Below are positions 3,914-49,024 of a stretch of DNA of 64,000 nt, piece by piece. The position numbers and the translations under genes were made by a program. Source of the stretch: an uncultured Gammaproteobacteria bacterium (GTDB lineage: Bacteria > Patescibacteriota > Patescibacteriia > Magasanikbacterales > GWA2-37-8); assembly GCA_964355175.1 (NCBI GenBank), contig CAYHBZ010000001.1:240523-304522 (forward strand). Direction: 5' to 3'. Every line of letters starts with the position of its first letter. The first letter of the stretch is position 1. A model generated the notes under the pieces. That model was given only the letters and a program-made list of their open reading frames with translations, was not told where the DNA came from and did no database searches.

Positions 3914-6091
3914 TTAATTGGATTCATAAATAGATATAATATTTTGAGCATATTTCTCCCAAGTAAAATGCTGGGCCAATTTACGCGCAGACTCGCCCAT
4001 TTCTTTTATTTTTTCCGGATTTTCATAAAAATATTTCATTTTATCCGCCAAAATTCCCGCATCAGCAACCGGGATTATAAAACCTTGCTTTCCATCTTCC
4101 ACCACTGAGCCGGCATTATAGGTAGTAATAACTGGAAGCCCTGAAGCCAGCGCTTCGTACACTGACTTGGACGATCCTTCCAAAATAGAAGGGAAAACAT
4201 ACACGTTATTTTTGGGCAATTCTTTGGCCATATCGCAAAAACCATATACCGCTATATTGCGCTGTGAAGCGTTTTCTAAATACGAACGCACTTCCGGATA
4301 AACACGACCATATAAATTTAGTTTTGCATTTTTAAAATTATTTTTTTTCCAGGCTTCAATTAAATAAGCAACGCCTTTTCTCTGATTAATGGCTCCGGCA
4401 AAGCAAAAATTTATTTCTTTATTATGTTTCTGCTGGGGCGTAAATTTATTTATATCTACCCCAAAAGGTACTACCGAAATTTTATTTGAATCGACTTCTT
4501 CATAAATCAAAGAATCCTTAACGAATAACGATGGCACTATAAATTGATCGACATGATTAAAACAATCTTTTACATAATCATCCACCTTTAGATTCACATT
4601 TTTATATAGCTCATCTTTACCTTCCAATATTTTACCAAGAAAAGAAGTGAGAGCCATCGGCACATCCTGATAAATTTTAATAGCGGGATTAATTTGTTTT
4701 ATATAAGCATAAACTTTTGGAGTAAAGTCCCAAGAATGTACAAAATCAATATTGGACAGGTCTAATTTCTTTAATTTTTTTAATAAAAAAAACTGAAAAA
4801 TTTCAATTTTAATTTTATTAAGATTAAAGTGTCTGGAAACAGAAAAATAAATATGAAAAAAATTAATCAACTTCATCAATATCTCACCCATTGGAATAAC
4901 TTTTTTTATAAGCGAGGTGGATTCTATATTTTTTAAAAAATTTCTACAAAAAACAAAAACACCATTTCGATAAGATAAATTTTTATAGATTTCAAAAGCG
5001 CGAGATCCAATAGTATTGCGTACACCAAAATCTGAATTTAAAATAAATATCCCCCTCTTCTTTTCAAACCCTCTAATAGCTTTTACCCATTCTGACACAT
5101 CATCTATATTTTTTAATACATGGACTTCTCGGTCATCTACATCTTTATCAATTACCGCTGAACTGGATATTACCGGTATTTTTAAACGACCGGCTTCTAA
5201 GCCAACTCTACCCGAAAAGGTGTTATTCCAACGTGAAATACTTATAGCAACTTTGGTAATTTCATATATTTTAGCCGCATCTTTTTGGACCGGCATAAAC
5301 GTTAGATTGCCTTTTACCAAACGATCGCTGCGATCTTCCACTAGCAAAAATTCATATTCCGGCAAAACTTTAGACACTTTGATAAATATCTCATAAGCCT
5401 TTTCAGAATTTCTACCACCGATAAAGGTGATATATTTTTGCTTCTTAGGATCTACTACAAAATTATTAATAGAAGCAATGTCGATTTTAGGATATTTTAT
5501 TTCATCCGCTTTTAAACCAATACGTTTGTGCAATAAGTCAGCCATCTTATCGGAATTTGCGATTATTCTTGAGGCGTGTTTTAATGCAACTTTATTACTA
5601 ATAATAAAATTTATAGTAAATGGCATTTCCACAATCATTCTAGCAAACTTAAATAATCTTCTTACCCCTCGGGAATAATTAACAAAAAGCATGCTAATAC
5701 TACTATTATCCCTTAGATAATAATGATATTTAATATTATTTTTTATACAGTATGCTGCTATAAAAGGCGAATAAGGTCCTTGCAACACCACAAACTCCGA
5801 TTCTTTAATGGACGATAAATTTTGATCCAAGATACTTTTTACCAAACCCCTGTTAAAAAATAAGAAAGCAAACCGCGAAATAGATAATAAAAACTTATAT
5901 TTTAAGAGAAAATTTTTACCCGCAACGACTCTGAAATCATACTCCGACTGATAATAGAGTATATCAAAAGAAATGGCCTTTATGTCATAACCATTTTTTG
6001 AATATATTTTAAATTCTTCCAAGATAGATTTTTCCGCTCCACCCGCAAACGAAGGGAAAAAAGCAGATAGAAAATAAATTTTTTTAATCAT
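3914..6091 (-). CDS. Large (725 aa) two-module glycosyltransferase with a C-terminal GT4 domain
   Basis: N-terminus MIKKIYFLSAFFPSFAGGAEKS (GT4-like start). C-terminus FPSILEGSSKSVYEALASGLPVITTYNAGSVVEDGKQGFII. Confidence 0.65.
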   Translation of the reverse strand: MIKKIYFLSAFFPSFAGGAEKSILEEFKIYSKNGYDIKAISFDILYYQSEYDFRVVAGKNFLLKYKFLLSISRFAFLFFNRGLVKSILDQNLSSIKESEFVVLQGPYSPFIAAYCIKNNIKYHYYLRDNSSISMLFVNYSRGVRRLFKFARMIVEMPFTINFIISNKVALKHASRIIANSDKMADLLHKRIGLKADEIKYPKIDIASINNFVVDPKKQKYITFIGGRNSEKAYEIFIKVSKVLPEYEFLLVEDRSDRLVKGNLTFMPVQKDAAKIYEITKVAISISRWNNTFSGRVGLEAGRLKIPVISSSAVIDKDVDDREVHVLKNIDDVSEWVKAIRGFEKKRGIFILNSDFGVRNTIGSRAFEIYKNLSYRNGVFVFCRNFLKNIESTSLIKKVIPMGEILMKLINFFHIYFSVSRHFNLNKIKIEIFQFFLLKKLKKLDLSNIDFVHSWDFTPKVYAYIKQINPAIKIYQDVPMALTSFLGKILEGKDELYKNVNLKVDDYVKDCFNHVDQFIVPSLFVKDSLIYEEVDSNKISVVPFGVDINKFTPQQKHNKEINFCFAGAINQRKGVAYLIEAWKKNNFKNAKLNLYGRVYPEVRSYLENASQRNIAVYGFCDMAKELPKNNVYVFPSILEGSSKSVYEALASGLPVITTYNAGSVVEDGKQGFIIPVADAGILADKMKYFYENPEKIKEMGESARKLAQHFTWEKYAQNIISIYESN

Positions 6092-37756: not shown

Positions 37757-37872
37757 AAATATTTAAAATAAATTCTTTTATTATTATAACACAAAAAAAC
37801 ATCCGAATCTAATCGAATGTTTTTTGTTTTACCATATCCACTGTCTACTTTTTCAAATAAACATTGGACATG

Positions 37873-38397
37873 GAGAGTAGCGCGCGACTACCAACCCCAG
37901 AGGTCAGGTACGCGATGCGACGCAGACTACACGAGGCCAGCCTACTTCGGCCAGACACTCGGTGCGACGGCCGGCTGGACGGCGTGAATCCGGGGCGAAG
38001 ACGGACTGCGACTGGTCGTCCAGCGATCAGGATTGGCTTCGGGATGTACGAAGCCCTCCTCCTCGCCGACAGGCGACGTCAGGAGCGACGCAGCCGCCGG
38101 CTTGGGCTCAGCGCCACCGAGGCCACCGTGTCCGGACGGGAGGAAGTGCAAGGACTCGGGACCACCGCACTGGGCGCGGCTGAAATTTCGGACTGCCAAG
38201 GGATGTTGTGGATGGGAACGACCGTCGGACATGACTGCCTCCTTCTCTTGCGAGAAGTGTTGCGAGCTCTCTGCGATTGGCATTGAGCTGGCCTCCCACC
38301 ATAAAGCGAAGTTGCCAAAGAGCGGGGAAAGATTATCCAAACTTTAGATATTCTTTCCCCACTCTTTGCACAAACTTGCTGTTTGCGCGCTACTCTA
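37873..38397. repeat. ~525-bp GC-rich non-host-like block bounded by 13-bp terminal inverted repeats AGAGTAGCGCGCG / CGCGCGCTACTCT
   Basis: Abrupt jump to GC-rich composition versus ~35% flanks. Exact inverted repeat read from sequence. Only overlapping low-quality ORFs inside. Confidence 0.4.
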
Positions 38398-38562
38398 ATT
38401 TATAAAGAACAATCTCTCAAAGTAAATATATTTAAAAAAATAAAAATATATTTGCCTTGGGCATCGTCGTGGCTGTATGAAAACAACCACGACAATGTAA
38501 ATGTGAATATGAAATTCGCGCCAAAGCGCAAAGCTCATAAATACGAAAGAGCAAACTACCTG

Positions 38563-38601
38563 CCGCGGGTGGGCTACACAATCGAAACTGCGTAGCCCAC
38601 C
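38563..38601 (-). terminator. GC-rich 12-bp stem-loop downstream of the high-GC minus-strand ORF
   Basis: CGGGTGGGCTAC-(14 nt)-GTAGCCCACCCG, followed on the minus strand by a T-rich stretch. Confidence 0.4.
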
Positions 38602-38646
38602 CGGATGGCTGTCACGGACTCGATCTTCCCAGACTTCCTGCGCTAG

Positions 38647-39012
38647 CTACGCTGCCATGATCTTCACGATCGCGAGCTGGCACTTGGCGGCCAGCGGATC
38701 GTGTTCACGCTCGAGCGCCTTGCTCTCCCAGACCACCACGCGGGCGATCTGGGCGTGCGGCTTGATGGACTCGACGGCCGTGTGGACGGCAGGAATGCGG
38801 AACCGGTCGGCGGCGACTTCCACGACGTGGGTGTGCTGGAAGCGGCCGGGGCGCAGCTTCGTGCTGTCCTTCAGGGACTCGAGCACGATATGCGCAAGCT
38901 CTTCATCCGTCCCTTCGAAGTGGGGGCGGCTGTTGCTGGTCGGGCTGTACTTGCGCACGGTGGGGTGGAGTTTGATGCCTTGAATGCCATCGGGCACGGG
39001 GACAACGGTCAT
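38647..39012 (-). CDS. Hypothetical 121-aa protein encoded with strong GC3 codon bias (foreign-like)
   Basis: Codons overwhelmingly NNC/NNG (e.g. ACC GTT GTC CCC GTG CCC GAT GGC), unlike every neighbouring gene. Overlapping plus-strand ORFs are probably shadows. Confidence 0.45.
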   Translation of the reverse strand: MTVVPVPDGIQGIKLHPTVRKYSPTSNSRPHFEGTDEELAHIVLESLKDSTKLRPGRFQHTHVVEVAADRFRIPAVHTAVESIKPHAQIARVVVWESKALEREHDPLAAKCQLAIVKIMAA

Positions 39013-39451
39013 GGCGATACCTTTTCCTTGGCAAAAATCAATCTGTAGTCCTGGAGACTACTCTTCGCTCCGCGGTAGAGCGACCCCGGCCGATTGACAA
39101 TTTTTGTGCACTCCGGGAAATTATATCCAAATCATTAGATATATTTCCCCGGAATACACTTTTTTAAAAGAACTCTTTTTATAAAAAATCACCCTAATCT
39201 TTCGATTTAGGGTGATTGTTATAAATTTTATTTTATACAATTTTACCCTAAATCATTTACCCAAACAAAAGCATAGCGTACCAAGGTAGCTGTCTTCAAT
39301 GTCTTGCGAATGTTTAGATGGTTAAATTGCATACAAAAATAATCTTATCAGAAATTCAGAAAAAGTCAACTGGTCTATCCACATTGCGACCAAAACGCTT
39401 TTGGCCAATGACATTATTTGGCTTATTTTAGCCAAGATTTGCCCAAAGGCC

Positions 39452-40676: not shown

Positions 40677-40706
40677 ACTACACTACTACCCATTGTGTAG
40701 TTTTTG
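40675..40706 (+). terminator. Rho-independent terminator of the GT4 gene
   Basis: AAACTACAC-(11 nt)-GTGTAGTTT + TTT. The stem includes the stop codon. Confidence 0.55.
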
Positions 40707-40830
40707 CTATAAAATATATTTTTGATACTCACCTTTATTTTTAAATAGAGGTGATTTAAAAAGTATATTGAATTGTTCTTTTAAAAAAATGTCATTCCCG
40801 CGAAAGCGGGAATCTATATGTACTGATACA

Positions 40831-40891
40831 AGAGGCAAAAGGTATTATTTTTTTCTAAATTTTAGGAATACATAATACCCTTTGCCTCTGG
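40831..40891. repeat. 18-bp inverted repeat with a 25-nt loop at the left edge of GC island 2
   Basis: AGAGGCAAAAGGTATTAT ... ATAATACCCTTTGCCTCT. Confidence 0.35.
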
Positions 40892-40948
40892 AATTTTCTC
40901 CTGAGGCATCCGTCGGTTGGGCCCGACATTTCCCTCTGGAGGTATCCC

Positions 40949-41458
40949 ATGCGCCACAAGCGCTTCGTTCCCGTGTTCGTGGTTCTGGCCATTGTAGCCG
41001 CGCAACTCTTCACCGGGACCGCCAAGGCCGAGCCGGCCGTCGGCAAGGACATGCGCAAGCTGCACGTGATGAACAATTGTTCCGACGAGCAGTGCTTCTA
41101 CACCGAAATCCCCAAGGGCTGGCACGCCCCCAAGGAAAAACCAAACCCCGCGCAAGTCCGCCAAGTCTACTACCTGGCAGACGACCGCTCGAACCAGAAG
41201 AAGCTCTCGGTCGTTTCGATCACCCCGACCGACCAGGAAAAGAGCGACTTCAAGGAGAAGATGCATCAACAGTGCGAAGCGCAGTCGGCCCGGTACGGTT
41301 GGGACAAGAAAACCTGCCTGAACAACCGGCAAGAACTCAAGCAGACGATGTACGCGATCTGTACGCCCAGCATCAAGGGCTGCGACAAGTTCGAGTGCTT
41401 GAAGGACTGCTACGAGCCGTACCCGACCAAGCCGCCGGCGCGCAACGCCAAGAAGTAG
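40949..41458 (+). CDS. Secreted cysteine-rich 169-aa protein encoded in a high-GC, high-GC3 island
   Basis: Signal peptide MRHKRFVPVFVVLAIVAAQLFTGTAKA. Ten Cys. GGAGG RBS 7 nt upstream. Codon usage is NNC/NNG-dominated. Confidence 0.55.
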   Translation: MRHKRFVPVFVVLAIVAAQLFTGTAKAEPAVGKDMRKLHVMNNCSDEQCFYTEIPKGWHAPKEKPNPAQVRQVYYLADDRSNQKKLSVVSITPTDQEKSDFKEKMHQQCEAQSARYGWDKKTCLNNRQELKQTMYAICTPSIKGCDKFECLKDCYEPYPTKPPARNAKK

Positions 41459-41591
41459 ACGGGGGTGCTACCGTCGACGCGTGTCCCACTCGCCAACAAG
41501 CGGGCAGTGGGACGCAGGCAGTATAAAATATCACTCGCCGCGCAATTTGAAAATAACATATTTGTTTTCAGATTGTGCGAGTGATATAAAC

Positions 41592-41624
41592 GCTTAAATA
41601 TAAAAACATCCGAATTTTCGGGTG
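41592..41624 (+). terminator. Rho-independent terminator (ACATCCGAA-TT-TTCGGGTGT + T-run)
   Basis: A-run, 9-bp stem with one G-U pair, TTTTTTG. Confidence 0.5.
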
Positions 41625-42805: not shown

Positions 42806-44416
42806 ATGGAAAAAATCAAGAGTATTGAAGAAAAAATTATCCGGGAGTGCTATAAAAAACCTCCAAAAAAACCAGACGATATCAATGTGATAAAGCGTCG
42901 AATTTTGCGCGCCCATTTTGGCGGCGGCACACCACCGACTTCGACACAATTGCTTAAAGCATATCATAAACTAGTCAAAGAAAACAAGCTCAAACCCAAC
43001 CTGGCTCTGGAAAATGTGCTCCAGCGCCGCGCGGTGCGCACCATGTCCGGTGTGACTATCGTCACTGCTCTCACCAAGCCATATCCATGCCCAGGTCTCT
43101 GCACCTACTGCCCCACCGAAGCGCGCATGCCCAAGAGTTATATTTCCGACGAGCCGGCGGCGGCCCGGGCTTTGGCTTTGGAATTTGATCCTTATGAACA
43201 AACTTGGCGCCGTCTCGAGGCGCTACGCAAAAATGGCCATCCGATTGATAAGGTAGAATTAATTATCAAAGGTGGTACTTGGAATTCTTATCCGATTACT
43301 TATCAATACTGGTTTATCGCCCGCTGTTTTGAAGCCTGCAATCGCGTACGCAAAACCAAAGTATCGGAAAAAATGACGTTGGATGAATTGCGAGCGGCGA
43401 TGGTAAAAATTCAAAATAAAAATGAAACGGCTAAACATCGTATTATTGGTTTAACTTTGGAAACTCGTCCGGATTTTATTACTCATAAAACAATTCTCGC
43501 GATGCGTGAAATGGGTACCACTCGTATTGAAATCGGTGTGCAGCATATCGACGAAAAAATAATGAAGATGACCAAACGCGGACATGGACTGAAAGAAACC
43601 GTAGACGCAAGTAAACTTTTGCGCCAATACGGATTTAAAGTAGATTATCATTTGATGCCGCAACTGCCATTTAGCACTCCAGCCAAAGATCTCAAAATGT
43701 TACGCCAAATTTTTACCGACAATCGTCTGCGTCCCGACATGATTAAAATTTATCCATGTACGGTCGTAAAAAATTCCGAATTATACGAATGGGTAAAAAC
43801 CGGACAGTTCAAACCTTACGCCGACAAACATCTTCTGCGAATTCTCAAAGAATTTAAATCTGATGTCCCCCGCTATCTACGCATCTCGCGCCTGATTCGT
43901 GACATTCCATCTCATCATATCGTGGCGGGAAATATGGTCACCAATTTACGCCAAGTAATTCAAGCGGAAATGAAAGCCGAAGGAAACACTTGTCGCTGTT
44001 TGCGTTGTCGCGAAGTGGGCCACCAGACCGAGATTGATTGGAAAAAAGAAAAAATAAAAAAATTCGTAGACCAATACGAAACCAGCGGTGGCCAAGAATA
44101 CTTTATGAGTTTTGAAAATGAAACGCGTGACGCGGTGTTGGCTTTTTGTCGCTTCCGTATTGATCCGTCCGGCATCTATCCGGCCTTTGTGCGCGAGCTA
44201 CATGTATACGGACAGTCCGTAGAAATCGCTGGACACAAAAAAGGCGCTTCTCAACACACTGGCTTTGGAAAAGAACTGGTAAAAACCGCGATGGAAATTT
44301 GTAAACAAAATAAAATACCGCGCTTGGCGGTAATTTCGGGTGTGGGCGTGCGTGATTACTATCGCAAACAAGGTGCGAAGCTGGATGGAAATTATATGGT
44401 CTTTGATGTTAAATAA
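42806..44416 (+). CDS. Elp3-like tRNA-modifying radical-SAM + GNAT acetyltransferase
   Basis: KPYPCPGLCTYCP (Elp3-type CX9CX2C radical-SAM cluster) ... IEIGVQHIDEKI ... C-terminal GNAT QHTGFGKELVKTAMEIC. Confidence 0.8.
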   Translation: MEKIKSIEEKIIRECYKKPPKKPDDINVIKRRILRAHFGGGTPPTSTQLLKAYHKLVKENKLKPNLALENVLQRRAVRTMSGVTIVTALTKPYPCPGLCTYCPTEARMPKSYISDEPAAARALALEFDPYEQTWRRLEALRKNGHPIDKVELIIKGGTWNSYPITYQYWFIARCFEACNRVRKTKVSEKMTLDELRAAMVKIQNKNETAKHRIIGLTLETRPDFITHKTILAMREMGTTRIEIGVQHIDEKIMKMTKRGHGLKETVDASKLLRQYGFKVDYHLMPQLPFSTPAKDLKMLRQIFTDNRLRPDMIKIYPCTVVKNSELYEWVKTGQFKPYADKHLLRILKEFKSDVPRYLRISRLIRDIPSHHIVAGNMVTNLRQVIQAEMKAEGNTCRCLRCREVGHQTEIDWKKEKIKKFVDQYETSGGQEYFMSFENETRDAVLAFCRFRIDPSGIYPAFVRELHVYGQSVEIAGHKKGASQHTGFGKELVKTAMEICKQNKIPRLAVISGVGVRDYYRKQGAKLDGNYMVFDVK

Positions 44417-45485: not shown

Positions 45486-45661
45486 ACTCGCGAATACATC
45501 CCTTTCACTCACCTAGAAAACACTCGGATAATTTGCAACTCCCTGAGCCTCTGGCCCTGAACTCGCCTGTGGGCTCAAACAGCAGGGCCAGCCACGACTC
45601 TGGGACTCACAAATTATTTCCTCGTGTTTTCACGGTTCGTTACAGGGATATATTCGCGAGT
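45486..45661 (+). repeat. Copy B of the ~176-nt conserved inverted-repeat element, immediately upstream of glyA
   Basis: 18-bp terminal helix ACTCGCGAATACATCCCT/AGGGATATATTCGCGAGT. Core AATTTGCAAC...CCCTGAACTCG...CAGCAGGGCCAG...CTCACAAATT. Confidence 0.5.
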
Positions 45662-45693: not shown

Positions 45694-46941
45694 ATGTACA
45701 CTCATACACTAAAAGAGTTCGATCCGATTGTTTTGGAAAGTATTAAAAAAGAACAACAACGCCAAGAAGAAGGACTGGAAATGATCCCGTCTGAAAATTT
45801 TGTTTCCCCGGCTGTGCTTGAAGCACTTGGATCTGTGCTTACCAATAAATATTCAGAAGGTTATGCTGGCAAACGCTATTATGGTGGTTGTGAATTTATT
45901 GATGAAGTGGAAACTTTGGCGATCGAACGCGCTAAATTACTTTTTGGTGCGGAACATGTGAATGTCCAGCCGCTTTCTGGTGCACCGGCAAATGTGGCTG
46001 TCTATTTTGCTTTATTGCAACCAGGTGATACGGTACTTGGCATGGACCTATCTCACGGCGGACACCTGACTCACGGACACCCGGTGACCTACATGGCAAA
46101 AATTTTTAATTTCATTAGGTACAAAACTAACGCCGAGGGAAAAATTGATTTGGATAATTTGCGCACTATGGCACTGGAGCACAAACCAAAAATTATTTTG
46201 GTTGGATACAGTGCGTATTCACGCGAAATTGAATATGAAAAAATAAAAGCAATCGCGGATGAAGTTGGCGCTATCACTATGGCCGACATTGCGCACATCG
46301 CTGGCTTGATTGCCGGCGGACAGATGAACAATCCGGTGCCACTTTTTGATGTCGTCACTACCACTACCCACAAAACTTTGCGCGGTCCTCGTGGTGGTAT
46401 GATTATGTGTAAAGAAAAATTTGCCAGCGCAATTGATAAAGCGGTATTCCCTGGTCTGCAAGGCGGGCCACACGAAAATAATATTGCAGCTAAGGCAGTT
46501 GCTTTCAAAGAAGCACTGTTACCTGAATTCAAAGAATATACTGCTCAGATAAAAAAGAACGCCAAAGTACTCGAATCTAAATTTAATGAATTTGGTTACA
46601 AACTTTGTTTTGGTGGCACTGACAACCACCTGCTTTTGATTGATGTGACTATGAAAGGTATTGGCGGTAAACAGGCTCAAATCGCGCTTGATAAAGCTGG
46701 TATCACGGTGAACAAAAATATGATTCCAGATGATACTCGTTCTCCTTTTGATCCTAGCGGTATCCGCCTAGGCACTCCTGCTCTGACCACTCGTGGCATG
46801 AAAGAAGCTGAGATGGAAACAATCGCCACCTGGATAAATGAAGTGATAATAAATCATGATAACGAAACAAAATTGGCTGAGATAAAAAACCAGGTGAAAG
46901 AATTAACCAAAAAATTCCCTCTTTACCCGACATTGGTCTAA
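45694..46941 (+). CDS. glyA: Serine hydroxymethyltransferase
   Basis: [41 protein letters not shown] ... [18 protein letters not shown] (PLP-Lys motif). Confidence 0.95.
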
Positions 46942-46945
46942 AGGG

Positions 46946-46974
46946 TTGACAAAAACTAAAAAAACCTCTATAAT
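46946..46974 (+). promoter_or_regulatory. Perfect-consensus sigma70 promoter TTGACA-17-TATAAT overlapping the glyA terminator stem
   Basis: TTGACA 46946-46951. Spacer aaaactaaaaaaacctc (17 nt). TATAAT 46969-46974. Confidence 0.4.
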
Positions 46975-46997
46975 GAAATGTTTATAGAGGTTTTTTC
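46955..46997 (+). terminator. Rho-independent terminator of glyA
   Basis: CCTCTATAA-(8 nt)-TTATAGAGG + TTTTTT. Confidence 0.55.
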
Positions 46998-47137
46998 ATT
47001 CTATAAAATTGTTCTTTGATAAGTTTCGCTTACCAATAGCAAAAAGGAAGTATATAATGCTTCTTATTTGCTGTTGGGAGGTGAACGAAACTTTTCGTTC
47101 TGTTTCACTTCAGTAAACCCGAGCCCAAGGAAAGAAA

Positions 47138-47440
47138 GTGCAGATCCTATTTACGATCTTGGTCCCGTCTGTTTTGGCCTACCTTCTCTTCATTTTCGGG
47201 CGGCGACAACTCCGCAAGAGGGAGTGGGCGCGCCTCACCGGGAAGCGGTGGCAGGAACCGAGCAGCGAGTTCGAAAACACCTGGTCATTCCAGGACACGA
47301 TCCTCACGGTCATCGCCAAGTCCGGCGATCATGACCGCTTCGAAGCTACTCGCAAGCTTGCTAGCCAATTGGAGCTCGGACATCCGTGGACCAGCCGTCC
47401 GCGCGAGATTCCGCAATTCGGGGTCTACGCCAACCGATGA
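47138..47440 (+). CDS. Small (100 aa) high-GC membrane protein with a GTG start
   Basis: AAGGAAAG SD 5 nt upstream of GTG. N-terminal TM ILFTILVPSVLAYLLFIFG. GC-rich codons, in contrast to flanks. Confidence 0.4.
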   Translation: MQILFTILVPSVLAYLLFIFGRRQLRKREWARLTGKRWQEPSSEFENTWSFQDTILTVIAKSGDHDRFEATRKLASQLELGHPWTSRPREIPQFGVYANR

Positions 47441-47539
47441 ATCCGACGAGACAGAACGAAGACGGCGACGGAGTGCAAACTCCGCCGCCTGCTTCAATGA
47501 AATACTTTTGCAAAAAGGTAAAGGTACTTGATTAAAGCA

Positions 47540-47580
47540 AATTTAAAAAATAAAAAAGAACTAAAATTTTTTAGTTCTTT
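47540..47580. terminator. AT-rich bidirectional hairpin terminator between island 3 and pyk
   Basis: AAGAACTAA-AATTTT-TTAGTTCTT flanked by A- and T-runs. Confidence 0.4.
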
Positions 47581-47593
47581 TTTATTTTTTAAA

Positions 47594-49024
47594 TTAAATT
47601 TCTCTTACTTCTACCAAATTTACTTTACTTTCCTGCCCTATCGGATCACCGGCTACCACCACAATCTTATCACCTTTTTTAGCCAGCTTATTCTTTTTTA
47701 TATACTCGGTCGCTTTTTTTATAAAATCTTCAATGTGCTTCACGCGTGGAATAATAAAAGGCACTACTCCCCAAGATAAATTTAGTTGTCTTTGCACACG
47801 CAAAGAATTGGTTGCTACCAAAATTGGCACTTGCGGACGCACACGGGCAATCATACGGGCAGTTTCTCCAGACACTGAATCCGCCACAATTAATTTGGAA
47901 CCGACTTCAAAAGAAAGAGTGCGGGATAATTCAGTAATCGCCGACGGAGCCGAACCTTTGATAGAAGTCGGCATCGCCAAGTCATCAAACGGCGAGGCTT
48001 CGGTAGTAATTACAATATCACTCATCGTTTTGACGGTCAAAACCGGAAACTCTCCGGAAGCAGTTTCGTTGGATAACATCACCGCATCGGCATGATCGAT
48101 GACCGCATTGGCAACATCGGAAACCTCCGCGCGAGTAGGACGACGATTATGTTGCATGGAATCAAGCATCTGAGTAGCCACAATTACCGGTTTGGACAAA
48201 GCGTTGGCTTTGGCAATCATCGCTTTTTGCAACAAAGGTACTTCGGCGGCTTTCATCTCCAGACCCAAATCGCCGCGGGCGACCATAATACAATCCACCG
48301 CTTGTAAAATAGCGTCCATATTTTCTACCGCTTCATGTTGTTCTATTTTGGCAATAATTAAAATTGGCGCTTGTTTTTTTAGTTTTAATTTTTTTTCAAA
48401 CTTTTTTATCAAAGCGCGCAAACGGATAATATCCTGCGCGGCATGCACAAACGACAGAGCGACAAACTCCACGCCAATCTTTACGCCAAATTCCAAATCT
48501 TCAATATCCTTTTTGCTAAGCGCCGGAATTTTCAAAACACTATCCGGAAAATTTAGGCCTTTGTGAGAAGACAATAATTCCCCTTCAATTACCTGCCCAA
48601 AAATTTTGCTACCTACGATCTTTTCAATCTTTACTTCCATATGACCGTCATCAAGCAAAAAGTGTTGGCCTTTTTTCAAAAATTTCTGCAAACCAGGATA
48701 AGAGACCGGCAATTCTTTGCCTTTGTATTCTTTTAAGTTAGTATCAAAAATAATTTTTTCTCCAGCTTTTATCAGCAGACCTTTTTCCGGCAAAATACCC
48801 AAACGAATTTTTGGTCCCTGCAAATCCTGCAAAATCGCCACCGGCATACCAGTCTTTTTTTCTACCTTTCGGATATTGTTTATCAATTTTTTGTGGCTGG
48901 CGTAAGTACCGTGAGAAAAATTCAGCCTGGCTACATTCACTCCGGCCTTTACCATTTGGGTCAAGGTTTTTTCATCAGCACAAGCCGGACCAATAGTCGC
49001 TACGATCTTGGTAGATTTATACAT
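47594..49024 (-). CDS. pyk: Pyruvate kinase
   Basis: KIVATIGPACADEKTLTQMVKAGVNVARLNFSHGTYASHKKLI ... MVARGDLGLE. Confidence 0.95.
   Translation of the reverse strand: MYKSTKIVATIGPACADEKTLTQMVKAGVNVARLNFSHGTYASHKKLINNIRKVEKKTGMPVAILQDLQGPKIRLGILPEKGLLIKAGEKIIFDTNLKEYKGKELPVSYPGLQKFLKKGQHFLLDDGHMEVKIEKIVGSKIFGQVIEGELLSSHKGLNFPDSVLKIPALSKKDIEDLEFGVKIGVEFVALSFVHAAQDIIRLRALIKKFEKKLKLKKQAPILIIAKIEQHEAVENMDAILQAVDCIMVARGDLGLEMKAAEVPLLQKAMIAKANALSKPVIVATQMLDSMQHNRRPTRAEVSDVANAVIDHADAVMLSNETASGEFPVLTVKTMSDIVITTEASPFDDLAMPTSIKGSAPSAITELSRTLSFEVGSKLIVADSVSGETARMIARVRPQVPILVATNSLRVQRQLNLSWGVVPFIIPRVKHIEDFIKKATEYIKKNKLAKKGDKIVVVAGDPIGQESKVNLVEVREI

Follow-up and report, generated by a model that had tools for sequence, protein, structure and literature searches.

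A GC-rich small membrane-protein gene in the glyA-pyk spacer of a Magasanikbacteria-like genome: a probable long-resident module with a predicted 5'-3' closed mRNA

The DNA analyzed here (the window) is a stretch of 64,000 nucleotides of contig CAYHBZ010000001.1 (assembly GCA_964355175.1, positions 240,523–304,522, forward strand), a chromosome segment of approximately 39% GC (median 0.39 in 200-nt windows). This study concerns a GC-rich island, hereafter I4, which is the only gene in the 652-bp spacer separating the convergent genes glyA (45694–46941, plus strand) and pyk (47594–49024, minus strand). The nearest relatives of the glyA product (415 aa) come from metagenome-assembled genomes of Candidatus Magasanikbacteria/Patescibacteria (96–73% identity). 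An earlier note on this DNA had described a GC-rich block containing a 100-aa open reading frame (ORF) with a GTG start, an AAGGA ribosome-binding site, an N-terminal transmembrane (TM) helix, and high-GC codons, and each of these features was confirmed. The GC content at 47100–47499 is 0.555–0.62 in 200-nt windows. The coding sequence (CDS; 47138–47440, plus strand), preceded by the Shine-Dalgarno site AAGGA (47127–47131, plus strand) 6 nt before the GTG, has a GC content of 0.59 and a third-codon-position GC content (GC3) of 0.74, compared with 0.40–0.44 and 0.35–0.43, respectively, for host genes, and its codon-position GC values (0.56/0.46/0.74) fit coding in this frame. The spacer is 100% identical in the Logan assembly of run ERR3856787 (locus L001, where positions 5374–6025 copy 46942–47593 of the window); the island is thus found in independent data and is not an assembly artefact or chimera.

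Homologs of the 100-aa protein were collected by a phmmer search over 1.84 billion representatives followed by a profile search over 5.8 billion clusters. Six further distinct members were identified (P0003, P0006, P0007, P0008, P0010, and P0011), two of them contributed by the profile search. The true phmmer homologs are 100–121 aa long, and the seven aligned members, 100–102 aa. In four members the gene occupies the same glyA-pyk spacer of related genomes (loci L084, L085, L090/L091, and L092), whereas in the other two (L086–L088 and L089) it lies between a UvrD-type helicase gene and gdh on contigs of 36–38% GC; all true homologs are on contigs of 36–43% GC. Three further matches were rejected, P0004 and P0005 as repeat-driven and P0009 because it shares only a short 'SGDHDR..A..LA..L' helical-repeat motif. 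No match to a protein or family was obtained in Pfam, NCBIfam, PHROGs, or PADLOC, nor in the PDB by sequence or by fold (best Foldseek PDB E-value 4.7); JGI metagenomes (protein and DNA pattern), IMG/VR, plasmids, and phages gave no homolog, none was found in any high-GC genome, and literature searches found no prior description. A word-indexed search with the 100-aa protein gave no homolog either. The first protein search came back empty because the ORF is uncalled in the source genome; it was left uncalled in L001 as well, the protein of the window itself is missing from the 5.8-billion-cluster collection, and the start of the L085 ortholog was called 66 nt too far upstream. The uncalled ORF in L001 and the misplaced start in L085 indicate that such families are under-represented in protein databases.

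The seven-protein alignment contains 17 invariant residues, including W30, T34-G35, W38, R67-F68, R72, L74-A75, G81, F94, and Y97, and its indels are in-frame. Residues 3–21 form a hydrophobic segment (Kyte-Doolittle 2.44) with no charged residue before it and seven Lys/Arg among the next 15 positions; an N-terminal hydrophobic segment with no preceding charge and three to seven following Lys/Arg is found in all seven members. The AlphaFold2 model (predicted local distance difference test score, pLDDT, 84.4) contains four helices (residues 2–34, 48–61, 65–79, and 94–99), i.e., an N-terminal TM helix and a helical domain of ~75 residues. By the positive-inside rule, the N terminus would be outside and the four-helix domain cytoplasmic. 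The synonymous divergence (dS) among members ranges from 0.7 to >2 and is near saturation. The ratio of nonsynonymous to synonymous divergence (dN/dS) is 0.16–0.4 in the closest pairs (0.16 for L084-L090, 0.20 for window-L090, and 0.29 for window-L084), indicating purifying selection. The small membrane-protein gene postulated earlier is thus supported by homologs, selection, and a TM segment conserved throughout the family: judged by these comparisons, the ORF is a real gene of an unannotated family in Magasanikbacteria-like bacteria of the candidate phyla radiation (CPR). All homologs carry GGAG, GAGGAGG, or AAGGAGG at the Shine-Dalgarno position.

The sigma-70-type promoter of the module (TTGACAAAA-N14-TATAAT; 46946–46974, plus strand) matches the TTGACA-17-TATAAT consensus at 12/12 positions, and the predicted transcription start site is near 46981. 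The window contains a single instance of the pattern TTGACAAAA-N-TATAAT, and 100 shuffles contain none. Its -35 and -10 elements are invariant or nearly so in all seven homologous modules from both genomic contexts, with TATAAT, TATTAT, or TATACT following TTGACAAAA, which gives comparative support to the proposal of the earlier note that this promoter serves the ORF. The same extended consensus is also found upstream of ordinary genes in these genomes; TTGACAAAA was accordingly rejected as an island-specific promoter and represents a general strong promoter of these genomes. A second promoter-like sequence, TTACCA-17-TATAAT (47030–47058, 10/12), was discarded, being located within the loop of the leader hairpin H2 described below and having hexamers that differ in the homologs.

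The promoter overlaps the intrinsic terminator hairpin of glyA (46957–46998; 17 pairs, with A and T runs on the flanks), whose 5' arm contains the -10 hexamer, as had been noticed before. An alternative partner for the 3' arm of the terminator (TTTATAGAGG) exists in both the window and L092: pairing with the downstream TCTATAAA yields the hairpin H1 at the predicted 5' end of the module transcript (TTTATAGAG.../...TCTATAAA; 46981–47007, plus strand). H1 is present in both the minimum free energy (MFE) and the centroid structures of the full transcript, and a hairpin of differing sequence occupies its position in every homolog. The terminator shows one compensatory change, from CCTC/GAGG in the window to CTTC/GAAG in L092, and both the terminator helix and H1 survive it. 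The prediction that transcripts from this promoter lack the 5' arm of the terminator therefore holds on comparative grounds, with the 3' arm forming H1 instead; judging from these sequences, the 3' arm can pair with the 5' arm in glyA read-through RNA and with TCTATAAA in RNA from the module promoter. At the opposite end of the spacer, a perfect 27-bp palindrome (47540–47595) overlaps the end of pyk at 47594 and would be a bidirectional terminator for pyk, on the minus strand, and presumably for the module transcript.

Downstream of H1, the leader contains a GTTCTTT box (47011–47017, plus strand), conserved as G(T/C)TCTTT in 7/7 modules, and the long AT-rich hairpin H2 (47027–47082, plus strand), for which RNAalifold predicts 25 pairs on seven sequences, eight of them with compensatory double changes. 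The region downstream of the CDS forms a GC-rich hairpin of the 3' untranslated region (UTR), GAAG-ACGGCGACGGAG/CTCCGCCGCCTG-CTTC (47458–47495, plus strand; 14 pairs predicted by RNAalifold, 3 compensatory), which is followed by no U tract and whose pattern occurs only in module-bearing loci. Further downstream, the tail AATGAAATAC, an AT hairpin (TACTTTTGCAAAAAGGTA), and TTGATTAAAG (47496–47530, plus strand) are conserved. The promoter, the leader blocks, and the 3' element align across both genomic contexts in the seven modules. The 3' UTR is 89% identical to those of L084 and L090, whereas the 300-nt segment preceding the promoter (the 3' end of glyA) reaches 83 and 72%, respectively.

The leader box (47092–47106, plus strand) and the 3' box (47448–47462, plus strand; 10 nt past the stop codon) constitute the two halves of a predicted long-range stem that encloses the CDS, the core of the former (TTCGTTCTGT, 47094–47103) being a perfect 10-nt complement of the core of the latter (ACAGAACGAA, 47451–47460). 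This stem, of 8–15 bp, is present in the MFE structures of 7/7 full-length transcripts of ~550 nt, and its ten core pairs are paired in all seven sequences. In L086, two stem pairs have changed from G-C to A-U (TTCATTCTAT / ATAGAATGAA), while L092 and the window contain G·U variants that pair only in the sense RNA. In a short curated alignment of the seven sequences, four pairs change on both sides, compared with 1.1 in shuffles, a value reached by 1/500 shuffles; when the partner is slid by 1–3 columns in either direction, pairing falls from 84 to 38–50%. For the full transcript, the predicted folding energy is -207.8 kcal/mol (z = -6.6). In Rfam 15, the only match in the whole window is tRNA-Val, and sub-threshold matches over 46900–47620 are far below the gathering scores.

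GC3 of the module in the seven lineages is 0.74, 0.69, 0.84, 0.62, 0.54, 0.69, and 0.74, compared with 0.31–0.43 in adjacent host genes. Carriers of the module at the glyA-pyk locus form one genus-level clade with at least four species besides that of the window (L084, L085, L090, and L092); the last ~400 nt of their glyA genes are 81–87% identical to the window at the nucleotide level, and dS is 0.7–1.5. Because the module is orthologous across the same-locus species, it is older than the divergence of several species; its second context, next to UvrD and gdh genes, may stem from a rearrangement or from transfer of the unit as a whole. The closest relative in the Genome Taxonomy Database (GTDB), L003, lacks the module. 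The island-free glyA-pyk spacer of L003 (L003:7243–7380) is one long bidirectional terminator (AAAAAACAAAAATACCGGC ... GCCGGTATTTTTGTTTTTT), the loop of which contains a nested, GC-richer insert of ~75 nt bounded by TATAATTACC/GGTAATTAT.

Taken together, these comparisons suggest that I4 is an old, selected module of foreign-looking composition rather than a recent insertion. We assign a probability of about 0.6 to the reading that I4 represents a long-resident and autonomous gene module in the chromosome of a member of Candidatus Magasanikbacteria (CPR/Patescibacteria), with a closed 5'-3' mRNA under post-transcriptional control. According to this reading, the strong housekeeping-type promoter would start transcription inside the glyA terminator, so that the transcript cannot form that terminator and would fold H1 instead. 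The AT-rich leader of ~155 nt would comprise H1, the GTTCTTT box, and H2, followed by a good Shine-Dalgarno site and the GC-rich CDS of 303 nt. The product would be held in the membrane by its N-terminal anchor, with the ~75-residue four-helix domain probably in the cytoplasm. Pairing of TTCGTTCTGT with ACAGAACGAA would close the whole CDS into a loop of ~350 nt, directly followed by the conserved GC hairpin. By analogy with hok and aapA, we infer that the RNA structure is regulatory, and that the closed conformation and the leader hairpins may control translation and/or decay post-transcriptionally. The high GC content may have come from an ancient high-GC source that is slowly ameliorating or may reflect selection on the mRNA.

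Several observations weigh against this reading, on the side of both mechanism and history. The CDS alone is no more structured than shuffled sequence (z = -1.5), and selection on RNA structure is thus no obvious explanation for its GC content. Covariation in the long-range stem comes mainly from one lineage, L086–L088, the boxes being nearly identical in the other six sequences. The stem is off the Shine-Dalgarno site, which is 24–37 nt downstream of the leader box (24 in the window), and the MFE partners of this site differ among homologs, which leaves a direct translational block unsupported. The transcription start, RNA ends, and pairing are predictions. L003 lies inside the clade of carriers yet has a 138-bp spacer and no module, and its position requires either one loss or several gains. 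If the ancestral GC3 was near 0.95, ordinary amelioration over a dS of ~1 could have brought it to 0.7 in the glyA-pyk clade. Finally, L086 and L089 have no genes in common with the other loci by which they could be placed taxonomically.

One alternative, which we regard as unlikely, is a type I toxin-antitoxin-like system, in which a toxic membrane protein would be encoded by an mRNA that is inert when folded back and activated by 3' processing, with an antisense RNA antitoxin over the 3' UTR. The covarying 5'-3' interaction, the strong consensus promoter, the membrane-anchored, basic product, and the intergenic location overlooked by gene callers are consistent with such a system. So are the conservation of the 3' UTR, which exceeds that of the other segments and recalls convergent antitoxin overlaps, and a T-rich run after the GC hairpin that scored terminator-like on the minus strand. 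However, type I membrane toxins are typically <60 aa long, whereas the members of this family are 100–102 aa long, with one TM helix plus a folded helical domain of ~75 aa, in place of a hydrophobic protein of <60 aa. At the seven loci, no conserved minus-strand promoter matching at least 9/12 positions was detected in the module or within 110 nt after it, although such consensus scans may miss weak or atypical promoters. The Shine-Dalgarno site lies outside the long-range stem, the module is single-copy at each locus, and neither PADLOC nor Pfam or NCBIfam gave a match.

The history of I4 has to be considered together with that of its neighbors. The earlier note had counted three intergenic islands within 10 kb and suggested a common process for them, either recurrent capture of foreign DNA or mobile mini-cassettes. 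Recurring intergenic GC-rich blocks are indeed present, but their number is four (about 37850–38310, 38550–39100, 40880–41540, and 47100–47510, i.e., spanning 37.8–47.5 kb), and the proposed common process is not supported for I4, fitting I2 and I3 better. A fifth GC-rich stretch (42950–43200, GC 0.54–0.59) is located inside an ELP3-like radical-SAM/acetyltransferase gene (42806–44416) and aligns with relatives; it was rejected as an island, being a native conserved coding region. In comparison with L003, I2 (38414–39166) and I3 (40686–41593) are clean presence/absence differences, while I1 is shared. I2 encodes a 121-aa ORF (38647–39012, minus strand; GC3 0.86) and is flanked by two copies of AAAGAAC (about 38404–38410 and 39169–39175), of which L003 has one, on the promoter-proximal side of I1. 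I3 is a 908-bp segment encoding a 169-aa Cys-rich protein with a signal peptide (40949–41458, GC3 0.86). The only homolog of this protein, P0002 (L082), shows 59% identity over the C-terminal half, and the similarity runs into the 3' hairpin; the contig carrying it (853 bp, GCA_040960315.1) is entirely high-GC. This suggests horizontal transfer of I3 from a high-GC organism.

I1 (37850–38400) is bounded by a perfect 12-nt inverted repeat, AGAGTAGCGCGC (37874–37885) / GCGCGCTACTCT (38385–38396), that is conserved in L003:1–420, L004:1–560, and L007:500–860. The closing stem formed by this repeat shows a compensatory C-G to T-A change in L007 and, on the minus (sense) strand, a G·U-compatible one in L004. 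Conservation extends to the flanks and to a 53-nt palindrome (38316–38368), whereas the enclosed GC-rich ORF diverges almost completely; the leader palindrome of I2 resembles that of I1 (GGGAAA..TATCYAA..TTTGGATA..TTTCCCC). As far as these alignments indicate, the architecture of I1 is that of I4 in an unrelated family. GC islands in general lack such a long 5'-3' inverted repeat, which is confined to the families of I4 and I1, with L017 as a possible third case. Roughly two dozen GC islands were observed in ~0.9 Mb of relatives sampled, with ORFs that are mostly singletons, and at L013:7300–8270 a different GC-rich ORF of 204 aa occupies the same glyA-pyk spacer. Recurrent gain of GC-rich single genes in this group is real.

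Other loci in the relatives add to this picture of the islands. In other Magasanikbacteria-like genomes, different single ORFs of high GC content follow a strong promoter of the same type, at L013:7300–8270, L026:7250–7900, L021 (minus strand, 1135 to ~300), L047:5387–6250, and L051 (minus strand, 2490 to ~1900). Many of these ORFs have signal peptides or TM segments, and two of them are located directly downstream of glyA. L021 contains two GC-rich ORFs in tandem, with an AT-rich palindrome and a hairpin between them; inside this hairpin is TTCGTTCTGTC, the same 11-mer as in the leader box of I4. The thiE-glyA intergenic region of the window (45486–45661) contains, just upstream of glyA, a 43-nt inverted repeat (79% complementary, arms 90 nt apart). 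The region also matches itself in reverse orientation in L003 and has no Rfam family at gathering score. Conceivably it serves as a leader or riboswitch-like element, or as a region of divergent promoters.

The explanation suggested in the earlier note was that high-GC foreign DNA, or a mobile mini-cassette, had recently entered the glyA-pyk spacer. On this view the donor would be, for example, a host bacterium, and the nearby promoter would be a lucky host sequence. For I4 this explanation is not supported, and we consider it improbable. Its attraction lies in the GC3 of 0.74 next to genes with 0.35–0.43, in the 138-bp island-free spacer of the closest relative L003, and in the different cargo of L013. 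The clean presence/absence of I2 and I3, the I3 homolog with its 3' hairpin on an all-high-GC contig, and the largely singleton ORFs of relatives point the same way. What argues against it is that the module, together with its AT-rich promoter and UTRs, is orthologous at the locus in at least four other species at dS of 0.7–1.5 and is also present elsewhere in two further genomes, and that the promoter belongs to the conserved unit. High-GC genomes, plasmids, phages, IMG/VR entries, and JGI contigs yielded no homolog, and no target-site duplication surrounds the boxes. The synonymous divergence close to saturation (dS 0.7 to >2) and the purifying selection within the family likewise speak against a recent capture.

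A further alternative, to which we also give little credence, is that I4 belongs to a class of exchangeable GC-rich cassettes with a shared 5' architecture, swapped by recombination at the GTTCTTT box or at inverted boundary boxes. A GTTCTTT(T/A)AAA box precedes all four island ORFs of the window in ORF orientation (38403–38412, minus strand; ~39160–39176, minus strand; 40773–40782, plus strand; 47010–47019, plus strand), between the first hairpin and the long leader hairpin. This arrangement, in which a GTTCTTT(T/A) box separates a first hairpin from a long one, is common to I1, I2, I3, I4, L013, L047, and L051, and the box was found upstream of 7/24 island ORFs, compared with 14/455 control ORFs. 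Roles as an RNA motif, as an operator, or as a recombination core are all conceivable for it. The I2 insertion lies exactly between the AAAGAAC copies, on the promoter-proximal side of I1; inverted boxes stand at the GC boundary in I1 and I4; and the I1 family has kept its boxes and flanks but not its cargo ORF, which has diverged almost completely. Nonetheless, a single insertion junction was analyzed, and a microhomology-mediated deletion in L003 explains it equally well. Most islands have no box, the long inverted boxes are not general, and the I3 empty-site junctions contain no box. The sense-strand changes, being G·U-compatible, speak for pairing of the RNA and not for DNA sites. No recombinase turned up, and none was searched for.

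A wider reading combines the recombination of such cassettes with the RNA control proposed for I4, and we put it forward as a speculative and rather unlikely possibility. Magasanikbacteria, and perhaps other CPR bacteria, would then harbor a new class of autonomous small-protein units characterized by recombination at fixed intergenic sites, closed-loop mRNA gating, and a maintained GC excess. Each unit may consist of a host-type strong promoter, an AT-rich leader in which a hairpin, the GTTCTTT box, and the long hairpin succeed one another, and a GC-rich ORF whose product is often secreted or anchored in the membrane. In at least two unrelated families, I4 and I1 (37850–38400), a covarying 5'-3' closing stem is located exactly at the GC boundary. 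If this reading is true, gain, loss, and cargo replacement would proceed via the shared box or stem sequences. To our knowledge, reports of covarying long-range 5'-3' control of mRNA have so far come mostly from type I toxins of Proteobacteria and Epsilonproteobacteria.

The view that I4 is no protein gene, but a structured non-coding RNA or an assembly chimera whose ORF arose by chance, could draw on the spacer left empty by the gene caller in L001 and on the folding of the full region far better than shuffles. It is very improbable in view of the codon-position GC pattern, dN/dS below 1, conserved residues, indels in multiples of three, the confident AlphaFold2 model, the identical sequence and homologs in several independent runs and assemblies, and the lack of an Rfam family match.

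On the reading favored here, what looks like freshly acquired foreign DNA is a conserved gene under selection, from a new family of proteins. The persistence of its GC excess through saturated synonymous divergence in seven lineages poses a testable puzzle, which might be explained by slow amelioration, by selection acting on the mRNA, or by biased conversion. The genomes of CPR bacteria are tiny, these bacteria are believed to live on other cells, and the majority of their small proteins lack annotation. The region with its neighboring islands offers an entry point to the question of how streamlined symbionts acquire and regulate small envelope proteins.

Among known systems, integron cassettes share several features with the islands, namely small and mostly orphan ORFs, often secreted or membrane-associated, a composition unlike that of the host, imperfect palindromes next to the ORFs, and, for I2, insertion beside a short repeated core on the side of I1 nearer the promoter. 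In contrast to integron cassettes, the island palindromes are located 5' of the ORFs as transcribed leader hairpins and have neither the R''/L''-L'/R' organization of attC sites nor a GTTRRRY core, and the islands are dispersed among housekeeping genes behind their own promoters. I4 was rejected as an integron cassette, since H2 lies 5' of the ORF and the 3' GC stem lacks GTTRRRY/RYYYAAC cores, and also as a promoterless array cassette, since it has its own conserved consensus promoter and stands alone between glyA and pyk. No intI was identified, and no search of the whole window for it was made. A miniature inverted-repeat transposable element or a transposon with terminal inverted repeats was rejected as well: no direct repeat is found outside the 10-nt inverted boxes, the window contains one copy, conservation extends past both boxes in the second genomic context, and the G·U change fits only RNA pairing.

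Phage morons are reportedly independent promoter-gene-terminator units of deviant base composition located between conserved genes. Similarly, I4 consists of one gene that has its own promoter and is framed by the terminators of the conserved, convergent genes glyA and pyk, its GC content is far from that of the surroundings, and a different cargo is found at the same spot in L013. Unlike a moron, it resides in a bacterial chromosome between housekeeping genes rather than in a prophage, and it is old, orthologous across species, and equipped with elaborate conserved UTRs. The horizontally acquired islets of Patescibacteria (PMC12455944) resemble the islands in compositional anomaly, patchy distribution, and, for I3, a high-GC relative. 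I4 differs from them as a single gene with host-type regulatory RNA elements under purifying selection across species, which keeps its GC excess despite saturated synonymous divergence. Of the marks of a recent high-GC transfer, I4 shows deviant composition, whereas no donor homolog was found and the module extends beyond one strain or species.

A long-distance 5'-3' interaction is characteristic of the hok and aapA type I toxin mRNAs (PMC6733600). The product of I4, like those of hok/sok and aapA/IsoA, is small and membrane-targeted and is encoded behind a strong, constitutive-looking promoter, and its predicted mRNA is highly structured, with successive leader hairpins and conserved 5'-3' pairing around the coding region. 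Unlike those toxins, the I4 protein has 100 aa and a folded soluble domain, no antisense RNA promoter was detected in the scan of seven loci, and the pairing is 24–37 nt upstream of the Shine-Dalgarno site, neither over it nor at the extreme ends of the RNA. The hok/aapA long-distance 5'-3' interaction would thus be the nearest functional analogy for the I4 mRNA, with a partial resemblance.

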